From a virus: a DNA stretch of 64,000 nucleotides. Position 1 is the stretch's first letter. Each line of letters begins with the position of its first letter. Under the pieces are notes generated by a model, which was not told the origin of the DNA, made no database searches, and worked only from the letters and a program-made list of their open reading frames with translations. Below, in pieces: positions 4,871 to 40,917 of the stretch. Both the position numbers and the translations under genes were made by a program. The stretch lies in the IMG/VR virus record IMGVR_UViG_3300045988_165047; one strand, 5' to 3'.

Positions 4871-4871
4871 T

Positions 4872-19684: not shown

Positions 19685-20164
19685 TTAAACCAAATTCTCG
19701 TACTTGCTCCAATCAATGGACGCTCTAGCCTGCCACCATTTCTGATAGACCCCCTCCACAAACTTTAGTGTGGTGAGGTAGAACTCCGTGAACTCCTCAA
19801 GCGTTGTAAACTCGTGGAATTGTGGTTCCGTATCTGTACCAAACTTGATAGTCGTAGGAAGGCTTTTACCTTGGGTCTGATAGGCGATGTCGTAGAGGAC
19901 CTTGTAGTTCAGTTTATCTTCGTTAGTGAGGTTCACAAACAACCCCTTCCACTCAAAACCCCGAAGGACCTCATCGTCCGTCATCGTCTTATACCAATCA
20001 ACCACCACTGCCTTTATCTGGTCAATGGTAGGTTTATAAGGGAGCACCGCTTGAATTAAGTCGTTTCCGAATACCCAAGAAAGTATCCACTCACCTTTTA
20101 CCTCGTTATAAGGAAGTAGAGAGGGGGTTGCCCCCTCTACTCCTTTAGTTACTAAGTATTCCAT
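19685..20164 (-). CDS. Fibre-associated protein (possible DUF4376-like chaperone)
   Basis: 159 aa, immediately after the giant fibre gene. DWYKTMTDDEVLRGFEWKGLFVNLTNEDKLNY resembles DUF4376. The function is inferred from position. Confidence 0.45.
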   Translation of the reverse strand: MEYLVTKGVEGATPSLLPYNEVKGEWILSWVFGNDLIQAVLPYKPTIDQIKAVVVDWYKTMTDDEVLRGFEWKGLFVNLTNEDKLNYKVLYDIAYQTQGKSLPTTIKFGTDTEPQFHEFTTLEEFTEFYLTTLKFVEGVYQKWWQARASIDWSKYENLV

Positions 20165-23100
20165 TATAAGAAATCTGTTATGTTAATGAACTCCTGTACA
20201 CTCTTCACCTCACGGATTTCTCCAGTGAACATAGGTCTTACCGCTTGTTCGGTGTTGGAGCTTTCTAGGATTTCAAACCATATTAAGCCTTTATCGTGGT
20301 GTCTATGTCCTATATAAATAGGAGAATCTGTATCTCCAACGCTCCAAATCTTGGAACCTGTGGTATAGAACGTAGAATTAGAACCACCTGAGAATTGATA
20401 TGGTGTAAGACCTATGATGTCCATGTACTTTTCGTGTCTAACTCTAAGTATGTTGGTCTCGTGGTTACGAACAAACCTCCATAAAGTGGTTTCTCCATTC
20501 TCTCTGCGAGCCTTGAAAATGGGGGCATCGCCATTCATGGACACCGAACTTCCTGTAAGAGCACCCCACCAGCCAGAGTCGAAGTACTCGTACCCCATCG
20601 TCTTTAGGGCTTGCTGACCTACCCATTCTCGGGATATACCACTAACCTTCCAGAAACCCCAATCTCCTGATGTACCATTCTTACGGACGTTATCTGACAT
20701 ACCACTTTCAAGGCATCTTCCCATAAAGTGTGCCCAATTACTCTCGCTCGTAAGTGACCCATGGTCCCAGCTCGTTATTGAACCGTCCCTCACATACTTC
20801 AAGTTTACTATATTCTTGTACTCCTCATAGGATATTATTTCCATACCCCTACTCGTCATAAGTGTCTCAAAGCTCTCCCTGTTTCTACCCGTAACGTGTC
20901 TATTAGACTGAATAAAATCCTTGAGAACTCCCGAGCCTATCTTCCCATTGACAGAGCATAGTTTGAAAGCCCCTACAAGTTTCGCCTTATGGCGAACCCA
21001 ATCAGTCTCTACATCTACTATATTACTCGTATTAGACACTACGGCGTATATGTCGGGAGAAGTCGCCCTAGGTGCCTGATTAGGTATGGAGAAGTAACAC
21101 CATTCTGCCCCATCTGGGATGTCAAGTACTACATACATTCCCTCTTCAAAGTACGAAGAATTGGTAGAAGGGGAGTAGGACTCTACAACCCCCCCATCTT
21201 CTCTTACTATGATTACACCTTCAGCGTTGCCAGATGTTGGAACCCTTACCTTCTTACCTCCTCGTACTTTAACCCTATAAGCTACTCTTGACGTGTCTTG
21301 AACTATGGAGTTTTTAGTAGTGCTTCCGGCCACTACCTTTTGGTTCACAAGCTCATTACCGCTACTACGAAGTTCTTCAAGAGTGAATTTAGTCGCATCT
21401 GGAGCGTCTGGTTTTACCCCGTACGCATAGCAGAAGTACTTCTTCATACTCTTTACGTCATTTACCCCCTTGTACCAATACTCTGGCTCATATATCATCA
21501 GGTCTCCCTGTGAAAGGTCTACCGCCGCATCGGTACAATTACTCTGTATCTCGTTGTCGTCATACTTCAAGAAGGTATCTTTTCTAAGACGGCAGATACT
21601 CATAACCCCCTTAGACTTTCGCTCCTGCTTAGCTAAACAAGGGAAGCGAGCGTTAAGGATAGCCGCAATATGCGCAGAGGGCTTATAGGCATTACCGAAC
21701 TTATACCCCGTCTTGTTGTCAAGGTTGGAGAGCTTAGCTGGAGTTGCCACCGCATCGTCAAGCTCAACAACTGTGTACTGAGGCTGACGAATGTTAAGCT
21801 CATCAAAGCGTTCTCTGTACTTCTCAAACACAGCTTCGTCAAGGTACTTAGTGAGCTGGTAATTACCTAGGAGCTTACACTTAGAAACGTTCTCCGTTCC
21901 ATCAGCGTTGATACCTCCAAGACCCTTAGCATACCAAGCCTCAAGTTCAGACCCGTCACCCGTAATAGAGCCGATATTGATACGGACATACTTCAAGGAG
22001 TTATTACCCGAAAGTATTTCCTTGAGGAGGTCCGTCCCCGATAGCTTGGGGCAATTTTCAACTCTAAGACCAACAAGGCGACTAACGTCCCCAAATACAA
22101 TACCCGCTCTCGTGATGTTTGGTAACGACACAAGAGACAGAGTCTGGTAGTTATTAGGGAGTTTCACCACCTTGACAGCGGAACTTTCTCCAAAGAGAAT
22201 AGACGAAAGAGAGTTACACCCACGTGCATCAACCTCTTCAAGTCTAGAGCACCCTGTTAAGCTAAGTGAAGGAAGGTTCTCATACCCATTAAGAGCGAGC
22301 TTTCTGAGCATAGGCAGGTTATCTCTAATGGCGAACTCTGTCAGACCATAGGACTTTCCTTCCTTACCCATAATCAGTTCCTCAAGAACGGGCATATTGG
22401 GGATGTCCAAATTCGTGAAGCCACCCCAATCAGAGAGGTCAAGTTTCGTTATCCACTGCCCACCATATAGATGGAAGATGGTACCGATATTAGCCACCTG
22501 AGTGTAGCGGTACACGAACTCTTCTCCCTTCTGTACCTTCTTATGAACCATAGAGGTTCCCTCTCTCTTGAACTCAAGATAGAAGTCTCTACCCGTTACG
22601 GCACGAATAGTAGCACCTGCTTCGGAGTTACCCTTCCAAGCGATGTCCGTTGCAGTGTACTGACCCGTAGCCGCCCAAGCATCAAACAGAGCCATTCGGT
22701 TATAGATGAACCACTCTCTGTGCGACTTTCTGTTCCCCTGCATACTTTCAAGGTAGGAGTACGTCTGCGTAGTAACTCTCCCGTCACGGATAACAGAGAC
22801 ACCCTTAGTCTTGGGGTCAATGTACTTTCTAAGAGAGTCCACATTGAATACTCGCTCACAGAAACGCTCACTCTGTTCGTCATTAAACATACGAAGGATG
22901 TCCGCATTAGAGAGTTTTGCTCTGATACGGAGATATGCCTTCTTGATTTCATCGGGGAACTGCTCACGCAGGTTCTTCCACAGAACACTATCGTGCCCAG
23001 CGAAAGCATAGACGGTCTTTCCTCCTACGGACAGCTCTGTGTCAATAGTCTCCTCGTTAATGTCCCAATGATAACGAAGTCTCCCGTCATTTCGGACACC

Positions 23101-26100
23101 TAGGATAGTATCGTTATCATAGAAAATCATATAGGCGAGTACCTTGTCACGCTTAGGCTCGTAGAAGAAACTCATCATCATATTCTTCACACGCTGGTCA
23201 CAGCAAGCGAACATATCCGTGAACACATAGTAGTCACAGAGGTAGTCTATATCAAAGTAGTCACCAAGCTCTCTCTTAAACTTAGTTTTTCTCTGAGTAA
23301 TTGCACTTGCAGAAAGCCCACTAGCGAGAGTGTCCGTAGAGTGTACCCACTTGACAAGAGGCTCAAGATACTTAGGTTTCAGCGTCCCATCAGCATACTT
23401 AGCGTTTATCCCCTTGTCATCGGGGAAGCGTGCTTCAAACACCTTCATCCAATTAGGAGTACCATCAGATGCCTTAGCGTCAAAGTCAGAGTCCTTAAAG
23501 CTACCCATTGGGTAGTCGTTATTAAGGAACTCCCAACATTCAGTAGGGTTCTTACCGCCAAACTTAGTCGTTACCCAAGTAGCATCGTGGTATCCAGGAA
23601 TACCTAAGAACCCGAAGACATCCTCGGTGCTCTTGTCGTTGTTAAAGTTGAACTTCCCTAGGAACTTAGGAGTCTCATCTACTGAACCACGATAGAAGAG
23701 CAAGCAAGGCTCTCCGTCCACGGTGGTACGCACATCCTTATCGTAGCGTTTTCTATCTACGTGCTTCTGAGGAGGAGTAAGTTCCCCTGCCTTAATGAGA
23801 GTGTTGTGGACAAGGCGAGCCATCCCCGTATTATGGGAGCTGGAGCTTTCAGCAAAGTCCGCTTTAAGACAGAAGCAATTTACGTCTGCACCAGCAGGCA
23901 TACCATCCTTAGCAATTCGGAACGTCCACTTACCACTTTCTCTGAGAGTACCACCTGCACCATTCTCATCACAACCTACAAACAACTGCCCCAACTTTTT
24001 CTCCTTAGAGCTATCGTAGGTGTAGATGCGGTAGTTCTTAGTGGGGTAAGCAAGAGACGAAGTTCCTTGAAGAGCTATACTCCCACCAATAAGACGGAAG
24101 TTCTGTTCGGGGACACCACCCTTCACAAAGGTGAAAATCTCAGATACGTCAAACTTCGTCTTCTTGTTATTATTCACTGCCGCATAAAGAGCGGTAGGCA
24201 TCCCACTTGAGTGAGTGCCTGTAATGATTACAACACGAAGTCCAGCAGGAGCACTTTCAACGCTAATGTCCCCTTCGGAGTTAAGGACATCATTCTGCTT
24301 GTACTCTGCGATAAGGTCGTCCACCTTGGGCTGACCAAGAATGTACAAGGAGAGTACCTGGTCATCAGTTAGGAACGTATTGTACGCTCTAATAGAATTA
24401 ACATCTATCGTAGCCTTCGTTGAACCTATCTTAATAGGCATAGGAGTGGCTTGATAGACACTATCAGTAGGACCTCTCTGCACCCCTGCGCACATTACCC
24501 CATTGATATAGAGGTAAACCATTTCAGAGTTATTCTTCTCGTACTCTGAAGACTCTGACTTACTTTGTGGGAACGACACAAACGTAACCTCGTAGGGAAC
24601 GTCTGAAGCCATCTTCATAGCGAGTTTGCTATTACCGCTCGTGATTAGCCTAGCTTCACTAGGAGTGATTTCAAACCCCGTTCCTCTAGAGTCTACGCAA
24701 GACACAACTACTGCATCGTGGTCTACTACCTCACTACACTTGTATCTGATAGAGAACGCAAACGCATTAGTTGTTGGGAGTACCTGCTGAAGAGGCTTGT
24801 AGTTTACTACTGATATAGCGTCCCCCTTGTGACGGAGTGCTCCGTTAATCCAACCATCACCACCAAAGTTGAAGCCTCTAAAGTCAGTAGTTACTCCGTT
24901 GTACGTCCAAGAGTCTCTCTTAACATCAGAGTTGCTTCTACCTTGTGCGGATAAGTGTAGCTTCAAACCATCGGTGGGTTCCGTAAGGTTAAGGTCCGTC
25001 TTACCTACCTGTAAGGTATAGGTGTACGTGGTATCGCCACAAGCAATTTTGCAGGAGCGTTCCCCTTCCCTATTACTACGTAACTGAAGCTCATTGTCCA
25101 CGAAGGAAACCTTAGCAGAAGCAACTACCTCGTCACCCTCATATACCGCAACAGCCGTTGGAGTCTCAAGAGGGTTGTACACAGCATAGCTTAACGTATA
25201 GGTGTCAAACTGCTTAGTGACCAATTCAGGTCTCTGTCCAGCGGTGTAAACTCTCCCGTCCGCATAGTCAAAACGGGTACAAACAATAGGTCTGTTAATA
25301 CCCTTAGTGACTACGGCTACATCAAAGTAGATGCTGTTTGACTTAATAGTCCCACCGCCTAGAACTTCAAGCTCCGCAACTAATTGTACAGAGTTAGAGC
25401 CGTGAGACATTCTGCTTGTGTCAATCGTAAACGCCCCGTTAGCCGAGGATGCGGTAATAGTTCTGTCTTCGGTGGGTGCGCCATTGACGTAGCAACGAAG
25501 AACCTTACTACCACTACCCGACAAAGCATAGGGAATGGACAAGGACTGACCTCTCTCCGTGAGAGTGGAGATAGAGTATGAGCTGGTAAGTTTCAGCTGA
25601 ATTACATTCACCGTCCACGAAGCCGAAGCAACCTGTCTATCACTACCCGAGCCAACCTCTAAGCGCACTCGGATATTATTAGCACCGACACCCACAAACT
25701 TAGTAGCGTCAATCTTCTGTGTGCTCCCAGCAGGTACGTTTGATTCAAAAGAGTACGAAGTAGCCCCTCTAGTAATAGTTACGACAGCCTTAGCAGGGTT
25801 ACCCGTAGTGTCCTTGGTCTCCGTATTGATTTGGTCATAGGAGTAGACAAGTGCAACCTCATCCCCAGCCTTTACATTAAGGTTGGGAGTTACACGAGTA
25901 AGGACAATCTTGGTTGCACTTTGAGAACCTCCACCGCCACCTGTGATGGGACCTTCGGTAGAGATTTCTTCCCCAAGCATATTGTTCACTACAATTCGGT
26001 AGACCTTATCAGCGCCTTCCCCTTCTTCCTCAACCTTGATACCACCAACGGCTTCCTTCTTGAGCTGTTGGATAGCGGAATGAACCGCCCCACTCTGAAC

Positions 26101-27804
26101 CGCATTGGTAGAGTTAGGAGTTACACTATTCTCCACAGCAACCTCGGGGATAGAGATAGTAACCTCACCGCTAGCGTTTGGAAGTTTCTTCTCAGCAGGT
26201 CTAGTACCTACATTAAAGCTGATAGAGCGCACAGCACCCTTAGCACCATACTTTTCCCAAGAGCTTTCTACGAAGAAGCTAGTAAGAGAAGTACCTGCGA
26301 AGCGATAATCTTCCCATACACCACTCTTAGTTTCAAAGGTTATGATTGCGCCCTTCTTTCTGTCATCGGGGTACTCGGCATCCTGCATAGCTTGGAGAGC
26401 TGTCGCTAAGGTGTAGAAACCGCTACCAAGAGGAATTTCCGTGGTGACGTTATAGAAACCGCTACCACTACCATCCCCCGAACCACCCTTAGACGCACCA
26501 AGGAGGTCAAGATGGGACCCGTTAAAAGCATAGAACTCTTGCCCTACTTGATAGAGTACTCCCTTTTTAGGTGAAGCAACAGAAGTAGAACCTGTCTCCA
26601 TCGTGACGACCTCAGAGACTTTACCGCCTGCGTTCTTTCGGAGATACACACCATCAGACGAAGGAGGAACACCTGCCTCAAGCACCGACTTACACCCTAT
26701 GATAGGAGCGGTCTTACTCTTGAGTGCCTCCATAGAGGTTAGTCTCTCATCAAGAGCGGTAAGAAGTTCCTTCGTGTTTTTGCCCACAAGGGTGAACACC
26801 CCAACAGAGTTAAACACATAGAGGTCCTCACCCATCCCATAGATAGCTTCTCTATTGGGGCGGTTGTTGTCCATATAGAAGAGGGCAGTGTCCCACTTAG
26901 CGTAGTAGTTACTATCCTTTTTAGCCGCAAATGCGTCAAGGTCTTTTAGGTAAACTACTAAGTGCCCCGAGGGAGCTTCACTCTGTAAGATATTGGGGTA
27001 CCCTCCCTCTAGAGCGGAGAAGGTATTAAACACTCTCTTGGAGGTAGTAGCAAGAAGCGAAGAGGTCTTTCCAAGAGTTTTAGTCGTCTCTTCGTGTCCC
27101 TTAGTTACGTCCTCTAAGCCCTTCTTAACCTTCTTAATCTCCTCACCCTGCCCAGACTTTAAGGTATCTACTGCCTGTGTTACTTGGTCAGTCAGTTCTC
27201 TAAGAGCTGTCGTAACAGCCGCCTGAGACATTACCGAGGACGTAGATGTTCCCTTCGTCTGAGAGATTGTAATGTTAGAAGCCGCAACGGGAATTTCCTT
27301 ATGTGACCAATAAGTAGCCCCAGCTTCTCGGTACATAATGATGAGAGCCGAAGCATCCGTAATGGTTATAGGCCTACCATCAACCCCGATGAAGTTCTTA
27401 TAGGTCCCAGCACCTGCCGCAAGAAGAGTTACAGATTTATTGCTGGGGAAATTTGGTTCGTAATTAACGTCCGTAGCAAACCCCGATACACCACCTGATA
27501 CAGAGTTCACGTAGCGTACCATATTAGCGACCTCTCGGTCAATCTTATCCATCAGAGCGATATTGTTATCTCTCTGAGTATCTCTAACCTGTTGTGCGAG
27601 AGTAGTGGCGTTATCCACATTGGTGGAACTCTCAGTAAGAGCTTCCCACAATTTCAACAGCCCCTTGTCCCCCTTAATAATGGCGAAGAGCATTTCATTG
27701 ATTTTCGTCCTCGCCTCTAATCCAGAGTCTCCCTGCTGTATTCTCTTTATATCTTGTATATCCATATTCTCAAAACAAATAAAGGGCAACCTACATTTCT
27801 GCAA
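20164..27804 (-). CDS. Giant multidomain tail fibre / host-recognition protein (2546 aa)
   Basis: Single uninterrupted ORF (alternative start at 27765, MDIQDIK). It contains beta-rich Ig-like repeats and a LamG/ConA-like lectin region (MVYLYINGVMCAG...IRAYNTFLTDDQVLSLY, about 24.3-25.0 kb). There is a possible CotH-like region (FCLKADFAESSSSHNTG...DYYVFTDMFACCDQRVKN, about 23.0-23.9 kb) and leucine-rich repeats (about 21.9-22.45 kb). Confidence 0.8.
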   Translation of the reverse strand: MQKCRLPFICFENMDIQDIKRIQQGDSGLEARTKINEMLFAIIKGDKGLLKLWEALTESSTNVDNATTLAQQVRDTQRDNNIALMDKIDREVANMVRYVNSVSGGVSGFATDVNYEPNFPSNKSVTLLAAGAGTYKNFIGVDGRPITITDASALIIMYREAGATYWSHKEIPVAASNITISQTKGTSTSSVMSQAAVTTALRELTDQVTQAVDTLKSGQGEEIKKVKKGLEDVTKGHEETTKTLGKTSSLLATTSKRVFNTFSALEGGYPNILQSEAPSGHLVVYLKDLDAFAAKKDSNYYAKWDTALFYMDNNRPNREAIYGMGEDLYVFNSVGVFTLVGKNTKELLTALDERLTSMEALKSKTAPIIGCKSVLEAGVPPSSDGVYLRKNAGGKVSEVVTMETGSTSVASPKKGVLYQVGQEFYAFNGSHLDLLGASKGGSGDGSGSGFYNVTTEIPLGSGFYTLATALQAMQDAEYPDDRKKGAIITFETKSGVWEDYRFAGTSLTSFFVESSWEKYGAKGAVRSISFNVGTRPAEKKLPNASGEVTISIPEVAVENSVTPNSTNAVQSGAVHSAIQQLKKEAVGGIKVEEEGEGADKVYRIVVNNMLGEEISTEGPITGGGGGSQSATKIVLTRVTPNLNVKAGDEVALVYSYDQINTETKDTTGNPAKAVVTITRGATSYSFESNVPAGSTQKIDATKFVGVGANNIRVRLEVGSGSDRQVASASWTVNVIQLKLTSSYSISTLTERGQSLSIPYALSGSGSKVLRCYVNGAPTEDRTITASSANGAFTIDTSRMSHGSNSVQLVAELEVLGGGTIKSNSIYFDVAVVTKGINRPIVCTRFDYADGRVYTAGQRPELVTKQFDTYTLSYAVYNPLETPTAVAVYEGDEVVASAKVSFVDNELQLRSNREGERSCKIACGDTTYTYTLQVGKTDLNLTEPTDGLKLHLSAQGRSNSDVKRDSWTYNGVTTDFRGFNFGGDGWINGALRHKGDAISVVNYKPLQQVLPTTNAFAFSIRYKCSEVVDHDAVVVSCVDSRGTGFEITPSEARLITSGNSKLAMKMASDVPYEVTFVSFPQSKSESSEYEKNNSEMVYLYINGVMCAGVQRGPTDSVYQATPMPIKIGSTKATIDVNSIRAYNTFLTDDQVLSLYILGQPKVDDLIAEYKQNDVLNSEGDISVESAPAGLRVVIITGTHSSGMPTALYAAVNNNKKTKFDVSEIFTFVKGGVPEQNFRLIGGSIALQGTSSLAYPTKNYRIYTYDSSKEKKLGQLFVGCDENGAGGTLRESGKWTFRIAKDGMPAGADVNCFCLKADFAESSSSHNTGMARLVHNTLIKAGELTPPQKHVDRKRYDKDVRTTVDGEPCLLFYRGSVDETPKFLGKFNFNNDKSTEDVFGFLGIPGYHDATWVTTKFGGKNPTECWEFLNNDYPMGSFKDSDFDAKASDGTPNWMKVFEARFPDDKGINAKYADGTLKPKYLEPLVKWVHSTDTLASGLSASAITQRKTKFKRELGDYFDIDYLCDYYVFTDMFACCDQRVKNMMMSFFYEPKRDKVLAYMIFYDNDTILGVRNDGRLRYHWDINEETIDTELSVGGKTVYAFAGHDSVLWKNLREQFPDEIKKAYLRIRAKLSNADILRMFNDEQSERFCERVFNVDSLRKYIDPKTKGVSVIRDGRVTTQTYSYLESMQGNRKSHREWFIYNRMALFDAWAATGQYTATDIAWKGNSEAGATIRAVTGRDFYLEFKREGTSMVHKKVQKGEEFVYRYTQVANIGTIFHLYGGQWITKLDLSDWGGFTNLDIPNMPVLEELIMGKEGKSYGLTEFAIRDNLPMLRKLALNGYENLPSLSLTGCSRLEEVDARGCNSLSSILFGESSAVKVVKLPNNYQTLSLVSLPNITRAGIVFGDVSRLVGLRVENCPKLSGTDLLKEILSGNNSLKYVRINIGSITGDGSELEAWYAKGLGGINADGTENVSKCKLLGNYQLTKYLDEAVFEKYRERFDELNIRQPQYTVVELDDAVATPAKLSNLDNKTGYKFGNAYKPSAHIAAILNARFPCLAKQERKSKGVMSICRLRKDTFLKYDDNEIQSNCTDAAVDLSQGDLMIYEPEYWYKGVNDVKSMKKYFCYAYGVKPDAPDATKFTLEELRSSGNELVNQKVVAGSTTKNSIVQDTSRVAYRVKVRGGKKVRVPTSGNAEGVIIVREDGGVVESYSPSTNSSYFEEGMYVVLDIPDGAEWCYFSIPNQAPRATSPDIYAVVSNTSNIVDVETDWVRHKAKLVGAFKLCSVNGKIGSGVLKDFIQSNRHVTGRNRESFETLMTSRGMEIISYEEYKNIVNLKYVRDGSITSWDHGSLTSESNWAHFMGRCLESGMSDNVRKNGTSGDWGFWKVSGISREWVGQQALKTMGYEYFDSGWWGALTGSSVSMNGDAPIFKARRENGETTLWRFVRNHETNILRVRHEKYMDIIGLTPYQFSGGSNSTFYTTGSKIWSVGDTDSPIYIGHRHHDKGLIWFEILESSNTEQAVRPMFTGEIREVKSVQEFINITDFL

Positions 27805-27831
27805 GTTACCCTTTCTTTGACATATTCAGAT

Positions 27832-28140: not shown

Positions 28141-28866
28141 TTATAATTCCCGTGGGACAACTAGTTTAGTAGCTTCCTCCTTGTACTTATCATACATAAC
28201 CGCCATCTTATGCGTCTGCATGTTTAAGTACGCCTTAATCCCGAGGGAAGAGAGAACCTCATCAGTGTGCATATATTGCATAAGAGCTTGGTAGGTAATT
28301 GCGGACCCCCAAAATACCCCAACGGCAAGATTAGTCTTGCTGTATTTAAGGTAGCTTTCTGCAAACTCCTTAAGGCTAGTTAAGTCGTCTTCGTCATCTA
28401 CCACAACTTTCACGAAGTCGTCCTCATTAAGCAGGTGGTAGTTGTTGTATTTCATTCGTAGGTTCTCCCCCGTGCTGGGAAGTTTGTAGTCTACGATGAA
28501 TGATACATTACGGAAGTGTCTGTAAGGGAGAATATCCACACAACCACTAGTCTCAATGGCTACGTGATACCCCTTAAGAGTAGCGATTCTAAGGAACTCG
28601 GAAACATCTTGGAGTAGCGGTTCCCCTCCTGTAAGACAGATAAGGTTATACCCATAAGAGTCTACTGACTCTAGAATATCCCACTCATCCATTGGGTGTC
28701 CGCTTTTACCTTCAAGTGCTTCGGGTGTATCACACAGAATACCCTTAGTTTTTAGGTAGCACCGAAGAGGGCACTTACTAAGTCTAACGAACACACAAGG
28801 CGCTCCAATCCCGAACTTGTTTACCTCGCCCATAAAGGCTGGGTAGATAGTTTGTACGTTTAGCAT
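28141..28866 (-). CDS. queE: 7-carboxy-7-deazaguanine synthase (QueE, radical SAM)
   Basis: N-terminal FMGEVNKFGIGAPCVFVRLSKCPLRC...CDTPEA aligns with the QueE cluster loop. The SAM-binding motif CLTGGEPLL is present. The Cys spacing is atypical (see findings). Confidence 0.8.
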   Translation of the reverse strand: MLNVQTIYPAFMGEVNKFGIGAPCVFVRLSKCPLRCYLKTKGILCDTPEALEGKSGHPMDEWDILESVDSYGYNLICLTGGEPLLQDVSEFLRIATLKGYHVAIETSGCVDILPYRHFRNVSFIVDYKLPSTGENLRMKYNNYHLLNEDDFVKVVVDDEDDLTSLKEFAESYLKYSKTNLAVGVFWGSAITYQALMQYMHTDEVLSSLGIKAYLNMQTHKMAVMYDKYKEEATKLVVPREL

Positions 28867-29294
28867 ACGGCTCTATATTGTTCTCTTGTTAAGTACTTCT
28901 TGAAGTTAAGAACTCTACTCTTATACACTCCCAAGAAGCACTTAACAGCTGTAATAGTAGAGTTATTATCCCCCTTCTTTAAGAGGGAGATTAGGTTCTG
29001 TTGTCTTCCGTCTATGTCGGTGGTGTCTAGGTATGCAACGATTTTACTACGTAGTCGCCCGAGGGAGAAGGCTCCCCTAATGGCTGGGTAGAAAACCTGC
29101 TTTCTGTAATAAGACATAACCTCAGCGAGTACAACAACTGCGTCCTTCTCTGATAAGCTACGTGCTCTAGTACAGATTGTGTCAATGGCTTCTCTTTCTG
29201 TCTGGAGAGTTTCATTAGCGGAACCCTCAATGACGTATTTTCCTGACTTGAACTCAACACAAGTTCCAACCAAATGTTTGGCTAAGTTATTCAT
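28860..29294 (-). CDS. Hypothetical protein embedded in the deazaguanine cluster
   Basis: 144 aa, with start/stop overlaps to both neighbours. Confidence 0.6.
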   Translation of the reverse strand: MNNLAKHLVGTCVEFKSGKYVIEGSANETLQTEREAIDTICTRARSLSEKDAVVVLAEVMSYYRKQVFYPAIRGAFSLGRLRSKIVAYLDTTDIDGRQQNLISLLKKGDNNSTITAVKCFLGVYKSRVLNFKKYLTREQYRAVC

Positions 29295-30019
29295 CGTTTC
29301 TCTTTTATTGGTTCTTTCACCTCTTCAAAGTCAGCGATTTCTGCTGAGCCTTCAAGAGACTTACTTCGTTCTGGTAATTCTGTTACCGATGGTTGGGGTA
29401 AGGAAGAAGGTCCTCCTCCGAAGAGTTTCGCTAAGATGCCTCCACCTCCCGAACTTGCAGAACCTTCTGCCTCTACACTAATACTAAGACGCTCTCTTGA
29501 GAGATTAGCCTTAGCCGCTGTTAGTCCGTTTAGGCGGTCCATTTCACTTGAGAGGTTAGCATCTGGAACACCACCATCTAGTTTTTCGTGTAGTGACGCA
29601 CGCTGAACTCTTGTGTACTGCATCTTGATGAGGTAGTCCATCATATCCTGCGGAGAGGTCGGATAACCTTCCTCCCAATCAATAGAGCAAGCACTACCTT
29701 CTTCGTAGAATGGACACTTATCTGCCACATAACAGCTGTCGCAAGACATCCCTCCAGATATACTCTCAAGAGAAACCTTATCTCGTTTTTTCGGCAGGGG
29801 AGCCGCTTCAAAGGAGGGTTCCCATACGTCCATAGGTTTCTTAAGGATGGCAGAAAGGTAATCCATCTTACACTCCTCAAAGTCATCCTCTTGTCGTAAG
29901 CAAGTTAAACACCTGGGGGCTGACCCTTTCTCATAAAAGGGGCAGAGGTGTTTGGACAACTTCTCTGGAGTGTCCGCTTCAGTAATGCTTCTAATCCTTT
30001 TTAGGATGCTTTCTTTCAT
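29291..30019 (-). CDS. Cys-rich protein with duplicated CPFYE(K/E)GSA motif
   Basis: 242 aa. Contains LCPFYEKGSAPRCLTC and CDSCYVADKCPFYEEGSAC, with a Gly/Ser-rich C-terminal part. Confidence 0.6.
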   Translation of the reverse strand: MKESILKRIRSITEADTPEKLSKHLCPFYEKGSAPRCLTCLRQEDDFEECKMDYLSAILKKPMDVWEPSFEAAPLPKKRDKVSLESISGGMSCDSCYVADKCPFYEEGSACSIDWEEGYPTSPQDMMDYLIKMQYTRVQRASLHEKLDGGVPDANLSSEMDRLNGLTAAKANLSRERLSISVEAEGSASSGGGGILAKLFGGGPSSLPQPSVTELPERSKSLEGSAEIADFEEVKEPIKEKR

Positions 30020-30992
30020 ATCTACTTACGTACTTGTTCTTGAGTTTCAGGTTTGCCATCTTTATGAACTCCTTTCGGAATCCGAGCCACCCCGTCAAGT
30101 TCATATTATTGACAGCGTATCGGTCTTCTTTCTTACCGATTACTCCTTCATAATCAACTCCTGCCGCAATAAGTTTCACTTTACGCTGTTTACGGATGCG
30201 CTCCTTCTTCTTGTAATCTAAGGTACGGAAATTCTTCCCATCGTAGTCGTAGGTAGTACCATAACGAGTACCACCAAGCCACGTTGTGGAGTCCACCGAA
30301 AAGAATGGGTATCTCTTACACAACTCAAATGCTGTCCAAGCAAATCCGTGTATTCGTGTCCCGTACTTATTCGCAATGGTGGCTACTTTATGAGCGTACT
30401 CTTTGTCACGTTGGTTTACTCCTACGTACTTATACCGCTTACAATAGTACTCTAGGTTGGTAAACTTCAAGTCGTCATTAGTTCTATGTGCAACATAGAC
30501 TATTTGCAACCCTTCGGCTTCAAGAGGTTCAAAGTATTTCTTATTCCACTTTCGTACTATCTCCTCCCCAACCACTTTATCAAGGTCAAGGTTAGCGGCT
30601 ACGAATATGTACTCCTTGTGTTTGCGCAACCAAGCTACATACTCCTCAAGGTAAGGTAGCCAAAACTCTTCCGATGTGAGTTTATCGTACTCGGGGTGGT
30701 CCTCATGAAACTGACCCATAAAGGAGAACGCTCCAGAGTCCGTCATAAAGATACCATCCTGTTCGTACACCTCTTTAAGTAACTCCTCAAAAGAGCGAAG
30801 AGACTTTCTCAGATAGTGGTAAGATACGAGGATTTCTTTTATGCCGAAGCGTCTAAGAGTTCTAGCGTCCTCAATAGAAGAAGCAGAGAAAAACACAACC
30901 GCTTTACTCCGCCTCTTATCGTATTCTAAATTCTTAGGTATCAAGGAGAGTCTGCATTTCGTTAGTGAATACCTCAGTAGAAATAGTCCCAT
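29991..30992 (-). CDS. dpdA: DpdA-like 7-deazaguanine DNA transglycosylase (TGT superfamily)
   Basis: ILVSYHYL...FMTDSGAFSF resembles the DpdA N-terminal region (LFVSH...LDSGGF). It is flanked by queC and queE. The true start may be a downstream TTG (30944) or GTG (30896), because the ATG at 30992 overlaps queC by 59 nt. Confidence 0.7.
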   Translation of the reverse strand: MGLFLLRYSLTKCRLSLIPKNLEYDKRRSKAVVFFSASSIEDARTLRRFGIKEILVSYHYLRKSLRSFEELLKEVYEQDGIFMTDSGAFSFMGQFHEDHPEYDKLTSEEFWLPYLEEYVAWLRKHKEYIFVAANLDLDKVVGEEIVRKWNKKYFEPLEAEGLQIVYVAHRTNDDLKFTNLEYYCKRYKYVGVNQRDKEYAHKVATIANKYGTRIHGFAWTAFELCKRYPFFSVDSTTWLGGTRYGTTYDYDGKNFRTLDYKKKERIRKQRKVKLIAAGVDYEGVIGKKEDRYAVNNMNLTGWLGFRKEFIKMANLKLKNKYVSRYERKHPKKD

Positions 30993-31653
30993 CAGAGATT
31001 TCTAAGAACTCTGCTAACCATTCCTTACCAGCAATTCTAGGGTCCTCGTCAAATAGCTTAGGGTCAAACATCCCGTTTACTGCGAGTGCGATGGCTTTCT
31101 GTACACACGATTTGCACTTCCCACACCCCTTAATACTATGTGCGTCATAGCATGTTCTTAGAGTTGGGATATGTGATACGTCTATGTCTCTTGAGATTGC
31201 TTCTGCGAGCATTTCCCCCTTAGTGTAGTCACGATAAGGAGTTAGGACCTTTGGGTGTACACTATCCCACGTGTCGGGAATATCTCTAAAGTAGTAGTAG
31301 TTCTGAATGAACGAAGTTAGTCCATTAAGAACATCCTCCTGCTTATCATAGTGCAGGTCATAGTGTGTCACTCCCAACAATACCTCATTAGAGAACTCAA
31401 AGGCTCTAAGTAGGTAAAAGATATTTCTCATAGGAACAATAGCATTAGCCTGTTCCAGAGATTTGAAATTGAGAGTGTGGTCCACTATAATGGAGTGTCC
31501 ATTAAGAAGACCCATACCTTTGAACTTTTCAAGTTGCTCAAGCTCTCTCTGTTCATAGCGTGCGCCCGATGCGAACATTAAGAGAGTATCTGGGGCTTCC
31601 AAGAGCCTATATAATTCAGAGTCCAACCCCGTGGAGTATAGTAGTACGCTCAT
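30934..31653 (-). CDS. queC: 7-cyano-7-deazaguanine synthase (QueC)
   Basis: PP-loop-like LLYSTGLDS at the N-terminus and the C-terminal zinc motif GCGKCKSCVQK. Confidence 0.85.
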   Translation of the reverse strand: MSVLLYSTGLDSELYRLLEAPDTLLMFASGARYEQRELEQLEKFKGMGLLNGHSIIVDHTLNFKSLEQANAIVPMRNIFYLLRAFEFSNEVLLGVTHYDLHYDKQEDVLNGLTSFIQNYYYFRDIPDTWDSVHPKVLTPYRDYTKGEMLAEAISRDIDVSHIPTLRTCYDAHSIKGCGKCKSCVQKAIALAVNGMFDPKLFDEDPRIAGKEWLAEFLEISDGTISTEVFTNEMQTLLDT

Positions 31654-31914: not shown

Positions 31915-31945
31915 ACAAAGATAGCAGTTTTCTTTTACTTAGCAA
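31915..31945 (-). promoter_or_regulatory. Promoter-like GTTG-N19-TATCTTTG
   Basis: The minus strand reads GGTTGCTAAGTAAAAGAAAACTGCTATCTTTG, upstream of the AK-rich mini-ORF. Confidence 0.5.
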
Positions 31946-32211
31946 CCTCGGACAATAATTTTCAGCACCACCGCTGTAATCCCGTCAGCATCCGTAAATG
32001 ATGGTCTAACATCAGATACAAGACCCTTCTTTGAAAAGTAGGTGTTACTAATAATCACTCCCTTGATTGCCTGATTGAGCGCCCCAGCCCCTACAACTCT
32101 AAGATGGATTACCCTATCGGGGTCCTCTTGGTAAATAGAATAAATGCTGGCACCCAACTTATTGGGGTCGGTAGACGACTTACACCGAATTTCCTTGTGA
32201 ACTACGTCCAT
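31939..32211 (-). CDS. SpoVS-like protein
   Basis: VVGAGALNQAIKGVIISNTYF...ITAVVLKIIV matches the SpoVS signature (GAGALNQAVKAIAIAR...TAIKLIV). 90 aa. Confidence 0.7.
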   Translation of the reverse strand: MDVVHKEIRCKSSTDPNKLGASIYSIYQEDPDRVIHLRVVGAGALNQAIKGVIISNTYFSKKGLVSDVRPSFTDADGITAVVLKIIVRGC

Positions 32212-32272: not shown

Positions 32273-32995
32273 CTAAGCTATTACAATTTTACCGACTACT
32301 TCCCCAGCTACCATCACGTAGTAAGTGCCGCTTTTTACTTTGTAGCCTACCTTCTGTACTTTAGCAATACCAGCCTCTACTTTAAGTAGGTCAAAGTAAT
32401 AAGGAAGGTAATCTTTCAGTGAAGGTTCATATACACCCTCTTCGGGAATTTCAGTACGAGTGCTATCCAAAAGTTTCCAACCAATATAGTTCATTTGGAA
32501 CTCTCGGTTAGAAGTGTTCTCCACTCTCATTGTAAGAACGAGATTTGAGAACCCGTCGGGAATAGCGTAGCTAGCGAGATTTTGGAACTGAATGTTTACC
32601 TTCCCATTTCCGTAGGTGAATGAGAGTTCGTCATCAACCCCGATTAGTTTCTCGGCAGAGATTGAGTCTTTGGATGTTGTTGTACCCTTATCGTAGGGGT
32701 CTTCTCCTAGAGGTACTGAACAACACTCCGAGGTGTCTCCTCCCCAAAGTGGGGAAACCTCATTTACGAGAATGCCTACCCAGATTAAGGTAGAGAACGC
32801 AAAAAGCGTTGTGAGAAGTGCGCTCGCTTTTTTCCCGAGGGCATAACCCAGAAGGATAGCGAACAGAATAGCCAAGATGAGGCTAACGAAGATAAATGAC
32901 ATAGCTATTATCGTTATTAAAGTTAGTATTGTCTGCACCAATATAGGCATCACCCATATCAGTACAAAGGGCTTGTTAGTTTTCGGAGAAGCCAT
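32273..32995 (-). CDS. Membrane protein with a C-terminal beta-rich (DUF4352-like?) domain
   Basis: 240 aa with three N-terminal hydrophobic helices. The C-terminal segment VLTMRVENTSNREFQMNYIGWKLLDSTRTEI is Ig-like. Confidence 0.6.
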   Translation of the reverse strand: MASPKTNKPFVLIWVMPILVQTILTLITIIAMSFIFVSLILAILFAILLGYALGKKASALLTTLFAFSTLIWVGILVNEVSPLWGGDTSECCSVPLGEDPYDKGTTTSKDSISAEKLIGVDDELSFTYGNGKVNIQFQNLASYAIPDGFSNLVLTMRVENTSNREFQMNYIGWKLLDSTRTEIPEEGVYEPSLKDYLPYYFDLLKVEAGIAKVQKVGYKVKSGTYYVMVAGEVVGKIVIA

Positions 32996-33432
32996 TACTT
33001 ATCAGTTTCAGCTTCCATTTCATGTACGAGGAGTTTCATATCCTCTGGAGCGATTAAGAACAGACACCCCTTAGCGCCTTTCTTTTTGATAGCGACTATG
33101 GGGACCTTCTTTTCTACCTTAGCCTTAGCCTTGGTGTCTTCGTAGAGTTCCCATAGAGAGAAGCTGGCACGGACCTTGCACTCAATATACACTCTCTCGT
33201 GTAAGGAGTCGCTATTAGTTCCGTGACCGCTATTACTTCCTGATAGTGGTACTCTTCTAGTAGAGAACATTGAAGCAACTTTGCGCTCAAAGGCTTTCCA
33301 CGTACTTTTACTAGTAGGGTTCTTAACCACCACATTATTGGAGCGTATTTGCTCCTTGGTCTTTCGTTTTCGTTTCGTTAGTGTGGGCATAGGCTTGTAG
33401 TTGAGAAGCCCAAAAACTTCAAAAGCATCCAA
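32995..33432 (-). CDS. PD-(D/E)XK nuclease, Hjc-like (putative Holliday junction resolvase), copy 1
   Basis: FERKVASMF..RRVPLSGS...SDSL...VYIECKV follows the E...SG...D...ExK pattern. The N-terminus is basic. Confidence 0.55.
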   Translation of the reverse strand: MDAFEVFGLLNYKPMPTLTKRKRKTKEQIRSNNVVVKNPTSKSTWKAFERKVASMFSTRRVPLSGSNSGHGTNSDSLHERVYIECKVRASFSLWELYEDTKAKAKVEKKVPIVAIKKKGAKGCLFLIAPEDMKLLVHEMEAETDK

Positions 33433-37888: not shown

Positions 37889-39697
37889 TTAGGAAATTCT
37901 TACCGAAGCGTTATCAACCACAGCCTTTTTAATTATCCTTCCGAGGTCTATCGCAAGCGTAGACATATTCTCTAGGATAACATAATGCTTGAACATCTTA
38001 GCTGGGTCGTAAACGTGGTTAATACAAACCTGAATAACGCTAAAGTTCATCTTCTCCACAAGAGAGACCTTATTACGAACGTCTCTTACAGCTTCGTCCC
38101 CACCATAACCTCCAGCGCAAGGAGCACCATCTGAGATTACGAACATTATTACGGGGGTCTTAGTCATAGAGCGTACTCGCTTTGCAGTCTCATATATGGC
38201 AGTTCCGTCTCTATTCTGATAACGTTCACGAGAAGTTCCCAAAGAGTACTTAGGGCGATAGCGTCCCTCTCGGTAGATGAATATCTCTGTTGTTCTATCA
38301 CGTAAATCGTCTCCCGAGTGCCCATAGATGAATAACTCAACTTGTGGAACACCTCCTACGGCTTCATTGATTAGCACAGCAGTATCTCGTGCACTTTGTA
38401 TTCTACTACCACACATAGAACCACTCTCGTCAATAAGAACGCAGATGGCTATCTTGTCGGTTTTCACCTCGCCCTCTCTGATGTAGACACTAGGAACTCC
38501 TTGTACCGCCTCAGCGAGTTTGTTAGTATCAAGAACACCGCTTCGCATAGACCTATGTATCAGCTTATACTCTTTGCAGTGTCCCTTGATTACTTTAGCT
38601 ATGGCAGGAATATACCTTTTCACTCTATCAAGAGAGACTAGATAAGTGGAGGCATCTTCGGGAGCCTTAATGAACACAACGTCCTTTGTAGTCTCCTCCA
38701 TAGTCCCCTCAATGATGTGAGAGGAAACCGCATCACGAAGTGCCCCACACTTATCAACGTCCTTAGAGGACTTAGTGGGCTTAATCTCTCGTAAGATTTC
38801 ACGGAAGGTTTCTTCGGACGCATCCATATCCTCCGACATACGTTCCTCCGCACGGGCGATTTCTTCTTCGGTGGGTTCTCCTTCTCCCGAAGCACCACCA
38901 CTCTTCTCCCTTTCATCCTCAATGTAGAGGTCACGAATAATCTCAAAGATGTCTCTTGCCAATTCAAGGCAGTCATCATTATTCGTGGGGTAAGGTAACG
39001 TTACCTCCTTAATCCGCACCATATAGTCATAGAACTCTATGATGTCCTTTTCCTCTATGTACTTTGGATAACGGATAATCTTTAGTAGGAGATTTACCGC
39101 CTTTTCGTAGAGGTTCAACTCTCTCTTCATTGACTCCAGAGTGTCTATGTAAACGTGGTCAAACACGTAGTACTTAACCTTCTCTAGGAAGTTTGCGAGA
39201 CCTGGTTTTTCCTCTCCGATTAGTCGCTCAATTCGTTCATCTTCTACGATGTTCCAAATCGTGTGGATAGGTTTAGGAAGAGTACCTAAAGAGGAGAGGT
39301 CTGTGTAAAGTAGATGTGCCGCTTCGTGTACCGCAATACCAATAAACACGTCTACCTTTTCTCCCAAGGATAACTCTGGTTCGTCAAACACCTTAGTGGA
39401 GCAATGTAGTAGCTTCCCGTCAGTATAGCTATCAGAAGAGGAGGACACCTTAATAGATACCTTAAAAGGAATGTCCATACTGATGACAGTCTCACTCGCT
39501 AATGAGTAGGCACGTTTGAGAACGTCCATTTCACTAAGCGTGGTATCTAAGAAGTAAGAGGAGTAAGAAGTACCCTCTAGGCGTTCCTCCCAACCAAGTC
39601 TTCCAGTAGTTCTCTTATGAACGTAGGTCTCACCATCTCGGTCAAACCAATCGTCCATAAGAGCGTCTACCATTTCATCGGTGATTATCTTGCTCAT
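37889..39697 (-). CDS. vWA-domain protein with an N-terminal HExxH region (CobT-like / DUF2201-like)
   Basis: C-terminal MIDAS motif VLIDESGSM, N-terminal IAVHEAAHLLY (HExxH), and a central acidic linker EDEREKSGGASGEGEPTEEE. 4-nt overlap with the upstream AAA+ gene. Confidence 0.75.
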   Translation of the reverse strand: MSKIITDEMVDALMDDWFDRDGETYVHKRTTGRLGWEERLEGTSYSSYFLDTTLSEMDVLKRAYSLASETVISMDIPFKVSIKVSSSSDSYTDGKLLHCSTKVFDEPELSLGEKVDVFIGIAVHEAAHLLYTDLSSLGTLPKPIHTIWNIVEDERIERLIGEEKPGLANFLEKVKYYVFDHVYIDTLESMKRELNLYEKAVNLLLKIIRYPKYIEEKDIIEFYDYMVRIKEVTLPYPTNNDDCLELARDIFEIIRDLYIEDEREKSGGASGEGEPTEEEIARAEERMSEDMDASEETFREILREIKPTKSSKDVDKCGALRDAVSSHIIEGTMEETTKDVVFIKAPEDASTYLVSLDRVKRYIPAIAKVIKGHCKEYKLIHRSMRSGVLDTNKLAEAVQGVPSVYIREGEVKTDKIAICVLIDESGSMCGSRIQSARDTAVLINEAVGGVPQVELFIYGHSGDDLRDRTTEIFIYREGRYRPKYSLGTSRERYQNRDGTAIYETAKRVRSMTKTPVIMFVISDGAPCAGGYGGDEAVRDVRNKVSLVEKMNFSVIQVCINHVYDPAKMFKHYVILENMSTLAIDLGRIIKKAVVDNASVRIS

Positions 39698-40917
39698 CGG
39701 CTCATAATGATTTTATTGACGATACCTCGTTCTCCTTCAGCCTTTGAACCTTCAAACATAGGCAGTATGCACAGGTCCATAGCGGTTATCGTGTCCCACC
39801 CATCAGAGATTAGCTGAGCGGTCATCAAGGTCTCTCTCGTGGAGATTGTTGTGGAGAGTTCTCCCTTTCGGAACAGACTTCTTATTGAGGTAGCCACCTT
39901 AACGATATGTTCCGCATTTTCAAAGGGGATGCGAGCACGCTGGACTAGAACCTTCTCCTCTTCCTTGGGGGGTAGGTAGTCTAACTCAATAGGGAAGAAC
40001 CTACCAACGAGTGCTCGGTCAAGGGACATAGTTCCTGAGTACTCACTACCCACGTTAGCGGTAGCTATAAACACACACTCCTTATGGACCTTGACACTTC
40101 GTAGGTCATCACCACCTGCGAGTTCCACGGGAAGCGTTCGCCGACTATCCAAGCAGGGGAATAAGATGTTATTAGTAGTTACGGGCGCACGGCTAAGTTC
40201 GTCCAGAATGATGACGCAGGGCTTCTGAATATCCTGTGTAAACTTTGCGTAGTCAAACACACTCTCTCCACCCTTCTTCAAGCGGTGAACACCTAAGAGA
40301 CCTGCGATTGGGTCGTACATACTACCCATATCGTACACACAGCACTCCTTCTCCAGCTTTTCACAAGCGAGCATCACAAGCTCCGTTTTACCAGACCCCG
40401 TAGGTCCAACCATTAGAGTGTTCGTACCTGTTATGATGTTTCGGAGAAGAAGCTGCCAATCGTTTTTACTTACGAAGAACCCATCATCTAAGATAGTAGG
40501 CCTATGGTACTTCAGCGAACTGAGCGTTTCTCTTACGGGGGTGCGCTTTCTTGGGCGGTAGATAACCTCCTCACCAACCTCCATAACAGAGGCTTCCTCA
40601 GAAGAGGAAACAGATGATACTCCGATGTATGCTTCATAAGCACGTATCATATCAGAAGGAGGTCTGTGCATTTCTTCCTTGTACTCGGTAACGTTCATAG
40701 GGTAAATCCTATCACTCGTTCCGTAGTACCCAGAGTGTACTTGCAGTCCTTCACCACCGAAGATGGTTCCGATAGGGTAAGCTATGCGAACGCTCTTATC
40801 TGCCTGCACATTGAGTGTAGTGTTTACAGCAGAGCCGTCCTCAAGGGTCTGTCCAGACAAGGCTCTAAGTCTTGTTCTGGCTCCGTCATTGACGGTCTTG
40901 AAAAAGTAGTACTTCAT
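39694..40917 (-). CDS. AAA+ ATPase (MoxR/CobS-like)
   Basis: Walker A LMVGPTGSGKTEL and Walker B CVIILDELSRA. About 150 aa at the N-terminus are unrecognised. Confidence 0.8.
   Translation of the reverse strand: MKYYFFKTVNDGARTRLRALSGQTLEDGSAVNTTLNVQADKSVRIAYPIGTIFGGEGLQVHSGYYGTSDRIYPMNVTEYKEEMHRPPSDMIRAYEAYIGVSSVSSSEEASVMEVGEEVIYRPRKRTPVRETLSSLKYHRPTILDDGFFVSKNDWQLLLRNIITGTNTLMVGPTGSGKTELVMLACEKLEKECCVYDMGSMYDPIAGLLGVHRLKKGGESVFDYAKFTQDIQKPCVIILDELSRAPVTTNNILFPCLDSRRTLPVELAGGDDLRSVKVHKECVFIATANVGSEYSGTMSLDRALVGRFFPIELDYLPPKEEEKVLVQRARIPFENAEHIVKVATSIRSLFRKGELSTTISTRETLMTAQLISDGWDTITAMDLCILPMFEGSKAEGERGIVNKIIMSR

Follow-up and report, generated by a model that had tools for sequence, protein, structure and literature searches.

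Two ORFs in a viral DNA modification cluster

The DNA analysed here, referred to as the window, is a stretch of 64,000 nucleotides from IMG/VR virus record IMGVR_UViG_3300045988_165047. It carries a minus-strand cluster of genes for 7-deazaguanine DNA modification, within which two open reading frames (ORFs) are wedged between a QueE-like gene and a DpdA-like gene. The first, orf242 (29291..30019, minus strand), encodes 242 amino acids. As a gene of its own it is homologous to the C-terminal domain of long DpdA proteins, and its product is proposed to be a DpdA partner subunit. The second, orf144 (28860..29294, minus strand), encodes 144 amino acids and is a basic, all-alpha orphan restricted to one clade. 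An earlier note, made from this DNA alone, had described both ORFs and their overlaps with the neighbouring genes. The ORF list places both on the minus strand at these positions, and the shared start and stop codons can be read directly off the sequence on both sides. Specifically, the orf242 stop codon and the orf144 start codon share four nucleotides (ATGA), the orf144 stop codon and the queE start codon share seven (ATGCTAA), and the end of dpdA overlaps the start of orf242 by 29 nucleotides, with orf242 lying in a different frame.

Homology of orf242 to the C-terminal domain of DpdA

Amino acids 90-206 of the orf242 protein match positions 363-478 of the 509-position profile phrog_887, annotated as "queuine tRNA-ribosyltransferase"/DpdA, with an E value of 7.4e-19. 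A single PHROG is thereby split over two genes, with positions 7-270 residing in the upstream 333-amino-acid gene and positions 363-478 in orf242. A BLASTP comparison with gp36 of Streptomyces phage BRock (500 amino acids) aligns orf242 to residues 357-485 of that protein (E 1e-20), and gp21 of Bacillus phage BCD7 (757 amino acids) likewise bears an orf242-like C-terminal region. The Supplementary Data of Hutinet et al. 2019 name both proteins as DpdA, with BRock listed for DpdA only. The split order recurs in Bacteroides phage BS162P1, in which a DpdA core is followed by a 251-amino-acid orf242 homologue with 44.6% identity, and the two BS162P1 genes divide phrog_887 in the same way.

Profile matches (to phrog_887 and BRock gp36) thus place orf242 among these C-terminal domains, and so does a set of motifs comprising a cysteine knuckle, a helical hairpin and a G-[ILM]-L-x-x-[LIM]-F-G peptide, all found in the alignments of split forms, fused forms and BCD7. 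The feature that orf242 does not share with the fused proteins is a covalent linkage to the DpdA barrel. Because orf242 has its own ORF, its frame differs from that of dpdA and the junction varies among relatives, it is best described as a split homologue. A programmed frameshift that would join dpdA and orf242 is unlikely and was rejected, since the junction ranges from a 38-nucleotide overlap to a 49-nucleotide gap among relatives. We are highly confident that the C-terminal domain of long DpdA proteins is the homologue of amino acids ~90-206 of orf242, and that this domain is obligately tied to dpdA. The statement in the earlier note that neither protein was recognizable consequently does not hold for orf242.

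The orf242 family comprises 837 representative clusters (50% identity clusters, E<=1e-3). Stand-alone homologues of orf242 number 74 protein clusters. No relatives were found in 185,579 bacterial and archaeal genomes, in a scan bounded by the sensitivity of the search pattern. Likewise, orf242 matches no family in Pfam, NCBIfam or PADLOC, and a profile search with the family alignment found no relatives in PDB sequences. The possibility that orf242 is itself the TGT/DpdA catalytic domain was rejected, as it has no TGT match in Pfam or NCBIfam, its AlphaFold2 (AF2) model consists of a helical bundle, a knuckle and a hairpin, and the catalytic core is encoded by the neighbouring gene.

Co-occurrence of the domain with dpdA

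To follow the distribution of the domain we used 79 loci, namely 77 from IMG/VR together with those of BS162P1 and BRock. The domain is fused to DpdA in 32 of these loci and is encoded by a separate gene in 47, where dpdA lies directly upstream. The spacing between the two genes falls between -38 and +49 nucleotides in 43 of the 47 split loci. No locus (0/79) carries the domain without dpdA. Co-occurrence with DpdA, which had been suggested earlier as a check, therefore holds in 79 of 79 loci, and a reverse test that starts from the DpdA core agrees. The earlier remark that gene neighbourhood was the only evidence has also been superseded for orf242, because an orf242-like domain is fused to DpdA elsewhere. 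Furthermore, none of the 32 fused loci has QueC, QueE, QueD or FolE within 5 kb, a limit that says nothing about the rest of the genome. The absence of Que genes near these loci indicates that the domain travels with DpdA and not with QueE or QueC.

The reverse test examined 41 clusters of DpdA cores at 90% identity, with counts that include related contigs. Long cores, which extend to profile position 270 or beyond, are accompanied by the domain in split or fused form in 28 of 30 clusters. The two exceptions are a contig that ends ~200 nucleotides past the gene and a protein of 434 amino acids. In none of the 11 clusters with short cores, whose match ends at position 250 or earlier, is the domain present within 5 kb (Fisher p 2.5e-8 for long versus short cores, a value that ignores phylogeny). 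This contrast suggests that the core's final ~60 residues were acquired together with the four-cysteine (Cys4) domain, as a joint lineage-specific addition.

Architecture of the orf242 protein

The orf242 protein has exactly eight cysteines (C26, C37, C40, C50, C93, C96, C102 and C111), all of which are invariant in 35 homologues with 38-56% identity. In total, the family alignment retains 35 invariant columns at ~50% mean identity. The duplicated CPFYE(K/E)GSA sequence that first drew attention to this protein is present as CPFYEKGSA at amino acids 26-34 (nucleotides 29918..29944) and as CPFYEEGSA at amino acids 102-110 (29690..29716), and the copies are identical at 8 of 9 residues. All 8 shared residues are specified by different codons, and 16 of the 27 nucleotides are identical. 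The use of a different codon at every shared residue suggests that the similarity is maintained by selection at the protein level and does not reflect a recent DNA duplication. Across the family, the shared motif shrinks to CP[FLM][YF]x[KE]G. The earlier description of two similar cysteine modules is accordingly right with regard to the motif, whereas duplication of a whole module is weakly supported and not established. When the two modules are compared profile against profile, the alignment is limited to the 7 residues of this motif (P 2e-4 to 6e-4, probability 29-44%), for which reason whole-module duplication was rejected.

Module 1 (amino acids 1-75, 29795..30019, minus strand) carries the invariant residues C26, C37, C40 and C50 and the first CPFYEKG sequence, and is predicted to form helices at 3-14, 18-31 and 44-58 with a predicted local distance difference test (pLDDT) score of ~90. 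This module is present in split forms and in forms linked to an HNH domain, and is absent from covalently fused DpdA proteins. In every protein of at least 440 amino acids recovered in the representative search, the profile match starts at position 76 or later. In place of module 1, the fused proteins have a cysteine-free acidic or Lys/Glu-rich linker of ~60-300 residues.

Module 2 (amino acids 89-120, 29660..29755, minus strand) is a knuckle with the arrangement C93-x2-C96-x5-C102-P-x7-C111 that includes the second CPFYEEG sequence and is followed by W115. Its four cysteines are invariant in split forms and are also kept in BCD7 and in 8 of 8 aligned fused forms. The AF2 model assigns this segment a low pLDDT, as expected of a metal site that is not modelled. 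Each Cys4 set presumably binds a structural metal, with zinc most likely and an iron-sulfur (Fe-S) centre possible.

The helical hairpin (amino acids 121-176, 29492..29659, minus strand) is modelled as two helices at 123-147 and 154-174. Approximately 15 polar residues are invariant in this region, and the invariant positions include Q134, R137, R140, E145, the D148-G149-G150 turn, S157, E159, D161, R162 and L163. The signature QxxRV...GGxxDxxLSxExDRL is common to BRock, BCD7 and the fused DpdA proteins from IMG/VR. The protein then enters a disordered Gly/Ser-rich tail with one conserved peptide, GGILAKLFG, within the segment GGGGILAKLFGGG (amino acids 191-203, 29411..29449, minus strand), after which follows a charged end. 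Residues G193, G194, L196, F200 and G201 of this tail motif are invariant, and its flanks have pLDDT values below 50. A G-[ILM]-[LIFV]-x-[KRQ]-[LIM]-F-G-like motif occurs in most of the split, fused and HNH-linked forms examined, with the BCD7 version reading GGILSRLF. Thus, the coiled region and the Gly/Ser-rich tail that had been recognized by eye correspond to the modelled hairpin and to the disorder that begins at residue 183.

The complete AF2 model has a mean pLDDT of 70. A Foldseek search of the PDB with this model yielded no match (best E 0.9), and ferritin and other helical matches at E ~1 were rejected as spurious. A search of BFVD recovered only uncharacterised viral proteins of 240-540 amino acids. 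The protein is acidic, with an isoelectric point (pI) of 4.95 overall and ~4 for module 2, whereas the DpdA core has a pI of 9.4.

The DpdA core gene and its selfish elements

The DpdA catalytic core gene (29991..30992, minus strand) is listed with 333 amino acids. Its phrog_887 match has an E value of 5e-34, and tblastn comparisons give 56% identity with BS162P1, 35% with BCD7 and 29% with mycobacteriophage DpdA proteins. The similarity to the DpdA proteins of Escherichia phage CAjan and Pseudomonas phage iggy is far more distant (tblastn E ~4e-4) and involves only query residues up to 258. Invariant residues of the core include D69-S70-G71 (DSG), D120, H153 and an HG pair. This distant homology, together with the DSG motif, identifies the gene as a phage DpdA. 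Searches with hidden Markov models and family profiles gave no match to Pfam TGT or to TGT proteins in the PDB. The canonical CXCX2CX22H zinc site is missing from the core, which in its 317-amino-acid form has two cysteines, neither of them conserved. This shorter form, starting at the ATG at 30944 (residue 17) and not at 30992, is likely to be the true one, because close relatives start there; with this start, the overlap with queC falls from 59 to 11 nucleotides.

A third architecture has an HNH endonuclease domain located N-terminal to the orf242-like sequence (proteins P0158, P0161, P0167, P0170 and P0177). In one such locus (L081:5114-7080), the gene for HNH plus orf242-like sequence directly follows a DpdA core of 295 amino acids. 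In another protein (P0175), one polypeptide holds an intein as well as an HNH domain and the C-terminal domain. Selfish elements thus gather at the junction between core and C-terminal domain. They also occur within the core, as exemplified by a dpdA ORF of 732 amino acids (L040:3794-5992) that contains a LAGLIDADG intein (Pfam Intein_splicing E 3e-23). Further loci of this type are L012, L038, L039, L042, L043, L079, L122-L126 and L129. The intein of the L040 protein interrupts the conserved FFSxDS|TTW motif, which corresponds approximately to residues 234-237 of the window DpdA, and this insertion site suggests that the motif is a probable active-site element. The dpdA family is therefore a frequent target of selfish elements, which provides a plausible route to the split. 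The linker of BCD7 gp21 (L080:4893-7166), a Lys/Glu/Pro-rich segment of ~300 amino acids between core and Cys4 domain, is not an intein and has no Pfam match. Its length indicates that the C-terminal domain tolerates very long flexible tethers.

The orf144 protein

The orf144 protein is 33% identical to a 158-amino-acid protein of BS162P1 (E 2e-22). Of the 47 split loci, 43 encode relatives, whose genes in every case immediately precede queE. They are missing from four loci (L044-L046 and L078), which include more distant split loci, and from all fused loci. The family amounts to 16 clusters among 5.8 billion proteins and is confined to the Bacteroides-phage clade. The protein has a pI of 9.5, with invariant residues L4, L8, G10, Y62, R80, R82 and R97 and nearly invariant residues E14 and E58. 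The AF2 model contains an all-alpha domain spanning amino acids 23-143 (pLDDT 82, predicted template modelling score 0.73), preceded by a conserved N-terminal peptide that is poorly modelled. No match to orf144 was found in Pfam, PHROG, NCBIfam or PADLOC, the line at E 0.011 in PADLOC being at chance level, and PDB sequence profiles gave no relative (best E 0.55). A Foldseek search of the PDB with the model gave a best E of 1.2, and the matches to Bcl-xL and 14-3-3, with template modelling (TM) scores of ~0.2, were rejected. Identification of orf144 as QueD or FolE is ruled out, given that both are encoded elsewhere in the window and that orf144 has no conserved histidine. With low confidence, orf144 might be guessed to help DpdA or QueE by binding nucleic acid or a partner.

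In 16 relatives (L001:6753-7073 and 15 other loci), a very basic gene of 105-120 amino acids that has no counterpart in the window lies between the orf242-like and orf144-like genes. Two proteins of 246 and 256 amino acids (P0229 and P0231) consist of the N-terminal part of this basic protein joined to an orf144-like sequence by a frame change, which may be either an assembly error or a real frameshift.

Pathway and transcription unit

The QueE-like radical SAM enzyme, a 7-carboxy-7-deazaguanine (CDG) synthase, is encoded immediately downstream of orf144 (28141..28866, minus strand). It matches phrog_2076 (E 1.3e-27) and NCBIfam QueE models (E 3e-32, under the curated cut-off). The QueC-like preQ0 synthase is encoded upstream of dpdA (30934..31653, minus strand) and matches phrog_1550 and Pfam QueC (E 4.5e-10, over the cut-off). 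Two additional pathway genes lie elsewhere on the minus strand and were also recovered by tblastn with the BCD7 proteins. These encode the GTP cyclohydrolase I FolE (16715..17383, Pfam PF01227 E 2.4e-54) and QueD/PTPS (4343..4987, Pfam PF01242 E 9.5e-32). FolE, QueD, QueE, QueC and DpdA are thus all encoded within the window, and the known route to dPreQ0 is complete without orf242 and orf144, neither of which fills a known gap. Neither protein matches the known synthesis and tailoring families FolE, QueD, QueE, QueC, QueF/QueF-L, ArcS, Gat-QueC, DpdL or DpdM/DUF3109 in Pfam, PHROG or NCBIfam; DpdN was not specifically searched. The folE and queD genes are 11 kb and 23 kb, respectively, from the queC-dpdA-queE cluster, beyond an ORF of 2546 amino acids. 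Unlike this arrangement, the pathway genes of BCD7 are all contiguous.

A terminator-like hairpin with a 15-bp stem and a T-run (27781..27814, minus strand) is located 3' of a 73-amino-acid ORF and probably ends a queC-dpdA-orf242-orf144-queE-orf73 transcription unit. A consensus scan found no other minus-strand site of this kind between 32146 and 27814; such a scan is weak evidence and has no coverage of Bacteroidota promoters. Co-expression of the two ORFs with the modification enzymes, and their membership in the deazaguanine module, are supported by the lack of an internal terminator-like hairpin and by synteny kept in 47 loci.

A proposed two-gene DpdA

Taken together, we consider it probable that DpdA is a two-gene enzyme in this virus, in which orf242 is the detached accessory domain of the core and serves as its partner subunit. 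The narrower claim that orf242 is a physical subunit of DpdA is, in our assessment, somewhat more likely than not. Of the roles listed in the earlier note, that of a DpdA specificity or loading factor is the best fit for orf242, because a sister clade carries its Cys4-hairpin unit as part of DpdA itself, and because the unit was never found away from dpdA. For orf144, the analysis revealed a conserved neighbourhood only.

Mechanistically, the gene of 333 (probably 317) amino acids would supply a basic catalytic core of the TIM-barrel type, and orf242 would supply an acidic accessory part, the equivalent of which the sister clade carries on the same polypeptide past a long flexible linker. The orf242 protein might bind the core non-covalently, with the N-terminal Cys4 helical module of the non-fused forms probably taking the place of the covalent tether that was lost. 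The final ~60 core residues are a likely docking or co-evolving surface, because they are present only in DpdA proteins that have the domain. The Cys4 metal sites might stand in for the CXCX2CX22H zinc site that this DpdA clade lacks, whereas the invariant hairpin and the GGILxKLF peptide could mediate oligomerization or recruitment of DpdA to DNA or to a partner. The result would be efficient insertion into phage DNA of the preQ0 made by FolE, QueD, QueE and QueC.

The closest known counterparts are BRock gp36 and BCD7 gp21, which share with the window the C-x2-C-x5-C-P-x(7-8)-C knuckle, the Q..RV...GG..D..LS.E.DRL hairpin and the G-[IM]-L-x-[KR]-x-F-G peptide. BCD7 additionally shares the RusA / SpoVS / Que / DpdA neighbourhood. 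The window differs from both in having the domain as its own gene and polypeptide with the extra module 1, whereas the fused proteins have a long acidic or Lys/Glu-rich linker. In TGT and in bacterial DpdA (bDpdA), of which the Salmonella protein provides a structure, insertion 8 is held to the barrel by a structural zinc site of the form CXCX2CX22H (PMC10164549). The Cys4 domain resembles this site in being a cysteine-rich and presumably metal-stabilized element attached to a guanine-transglycosylase barrel. It differs in having four cysteines and no histidine, in its spacing, and in its position outside the barrel on a linker or a separate protein. PDB searches detected no similarity of sequence or fold between the orf242 Cys4 sets and the TGT/bDpdA zinc site, and functional equivalence of the two might be proposed by analogy only. 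The short DpdA1 proteins of CAjan and iggy share distant homology in the core and the same FolE-QueD-QueE-QueC route to preQ0. By contrast, the short cores sampled here end near profile position 250, and an orf242-like domain is absent within 5 kb of them. Short DpdA1 proteins of the CAjan/iggy type are reported to act as single proteins in E. coli (PMC6884629).

Several observations weigh against the two-gene DpdA. The correlation with the core extension carries no phylogenetic correction and may simply mark two clades. In the fused forms, the domain sits on a low-complexity linker of 60-300 amino acids and may act as an independent module that is not packed on the barrel. The acidity of orf242 argues against direct DNA binding, and its cysteine spacing departs from both the TGT zinc motif and the motifs of classical ferredoxins. 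If CAjan and iggy are short-core types, as they appear to be, transglycosylation does not need the domain in every DpdA. Finally, orf144 may be a clade-specific second accessory protein of the same operon, a placement for which neighbourhood is the sole evidence.

Alternative explanations

The Cys4-hairpin-GGILxKLF unit might be a hitherto unrecognized, metal-dependent recruitment or regulatory module of the large DpdA clade. Such a module would couple DpdA to a conserved partner, for example to the sliding clamp of the replisome by way of the short hydrophobic peptide or to the packaging machinery, or would gate the basic core through its acidity, and would set the amount and place of modification. 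In split systems it would form an indispensable second subunit, with orf144 as a third. We regard this possibility as rather unlikely.

It is also conceivable that orf242 is a by-product of invasion by homing endonucleases or inteins, with no function beyond the one it had in cis, or is decaying. Genes-in-pieces enzymes do arise via homing endonucleases, as with the split nrdA of phage Aeh1, and the present case resembles them in that one enzyme is encoded by two adjacent genes and that HNH endonucleases and inteins occur in the same gene family. HNH domains sit exactly at the junction of core and C-terminal domain in some relatives, LAGLIDADG inteins lie inside dpdA in others, and BS162P1 has an HNH endonuclease gene near the cluster. 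However, no endonuclease is present at the window junction, and the invariant columns of the family give no sign of decay. Moreover, the split forms have gained a conserved extra module, and the split is stable over a broad clade of 74 protein clusters. As an account of what orf242 now does, this explanation is improbable; as the origin of the split, it is compatible with a two-gene DpdA.

The cysteines raise the question of whether orf242 is instead a small acidic Fe-S electron carrier, similar to ferredoxin, that reduces the radical-SAM cluster of the phage QueE. It has two sets of four invariant cysteines, with a Cys-Pro pair in either set, a C-x2-C-x5-C spacing reminiscent of Fe-S motifs, an acidic pI and a QueE gene located two genes downstream in the same operon. 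Yet the domain is fused to DpdA in BRock and in 32 loci without QueE or QueC within 5 kb. Pfam Fer4 and SPASM do not match, the spacing is unlike CxxCxxCxxxCP, and module 1 is modelled as a helical bundle with no match to a ferredoxin fold. An electron carrier is therefore very improbable.

Similarly, one or both ORFs could encode new tailoring enzymes or self-protection factors that alter the final base. Both ORFs lie inside the modification operon, neither protein belongs to an annotated family, and phage deazaguanine pathways include unassigned steps (PMC10516641). A new tailoring step is nevertheless unsupported for orf242, which consists of a bundle, a knuckle, a hairpin and ~60 disordered residues with no enzyme-like fold or family, and whose domain occurs on DpdA proteins without Que genes within 5 kb. 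The orf144 protein is small and helical and is devoid of a conserved constellation of His, Cys, Asp and Ser residues. Pfam also yields no match to DUF3109 (DpdM), to PTPS-like proteins (DpdL) or to QueF. Little credence can be given to this explanation for either ORF.

The C-terminal tails with which small terminase subunits (TerS) bind the large subunit (TerL) are flexible and carry a short hydrophobic motif, and the orf242 tail is similar. It is scarcely credible that orf242 is a TerS, or that its domain is a TerS-like or packaging-coupling module that tethers DpdA, since the weak PHROG 'terminase small subunit' matches of the Cys4 region (phrog_16015, E 0.02; phrog_6902, E 0.006) and the weak Foldseek match to a 'terminase small subunit' of Gordonia phage Jumbo (E 5e-3, TM 0.23) are at noise level over 30-100 residues with unverified PHROG labels, TerL (1474..3150) is ~26 kb away, and orf242-like genes adjoin dpdA and have never been shown beside a terminase.

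Relevance to other deazaguanine systems

Modification of phage DNA with 7-deazaguanines is a studied anti-restriction strategy, and its signature enzyme, DpdA, is taken to be a single protein. The long PHROG-887 proteins, like the DpdA system itself, are already known and annotated. In contrast, the literature searched contains no description of the C-terminal Cys4-hairpin domain, of the split form with its extra module or of the orf144 family, and on BS162P1 or on modification in BRock and BCD7 it holds nothing relevant beyond the supplementary listing cited above. A large DpdA clade (837 clusters at 50% identity) bears a conserved but unstudied Cys4 accessory domain, which in gut phages of the Bacteroides type is a separate gene. 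Genes similar to orf242 should be included whenever these systems are reconstituted or annotated. In published work, expression of certain phage DpdA proteins on their own has failed (PMC10516641), and an indispensable split subunit, if orf242 is one, could explain such failures of single-gene reconstitution. For annotation, a practical rule is to count as part of DpdA any gene of ~250 amino acids that has two Cys4 groups and directly follows dpdA. What the metal-binding tail gives to a DNA transglycosylase, be it efficiency, specificity, oligomerization or recruitment, is a tractable question.

Neighbouring genes

A megablast search of the cluster against isolated phages gave no match. A SpoVS-like gene (31939..32211, minus strand; Pfam SpoVS E 1e-9) lies upstream of queC, and 44 of the 47 split loci have such a gene conserved ahead of their Que/DpdA cluster. 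It is also present in Bacillus phage BCD7 beside a gene for a RusA-like resolvase, the window counterpart of which is located at 32995..33432. Directly downstream of the cluster is the ORF of 2546 amino acids (20164..27804, minus strand), whose true start is probably further downstream because the listed TTG start falls within the hairpin at 27781-27814. Finally, the region at 37889..40917 (minus strand) encodes a 602-amino-acid protein (phrog_1576 / peptidase-like) followed by a 407-amino-acid AAA-type ATPase (the 'porphyrin biosynthesis' family phrog_249), and both are situated amid replication genes.

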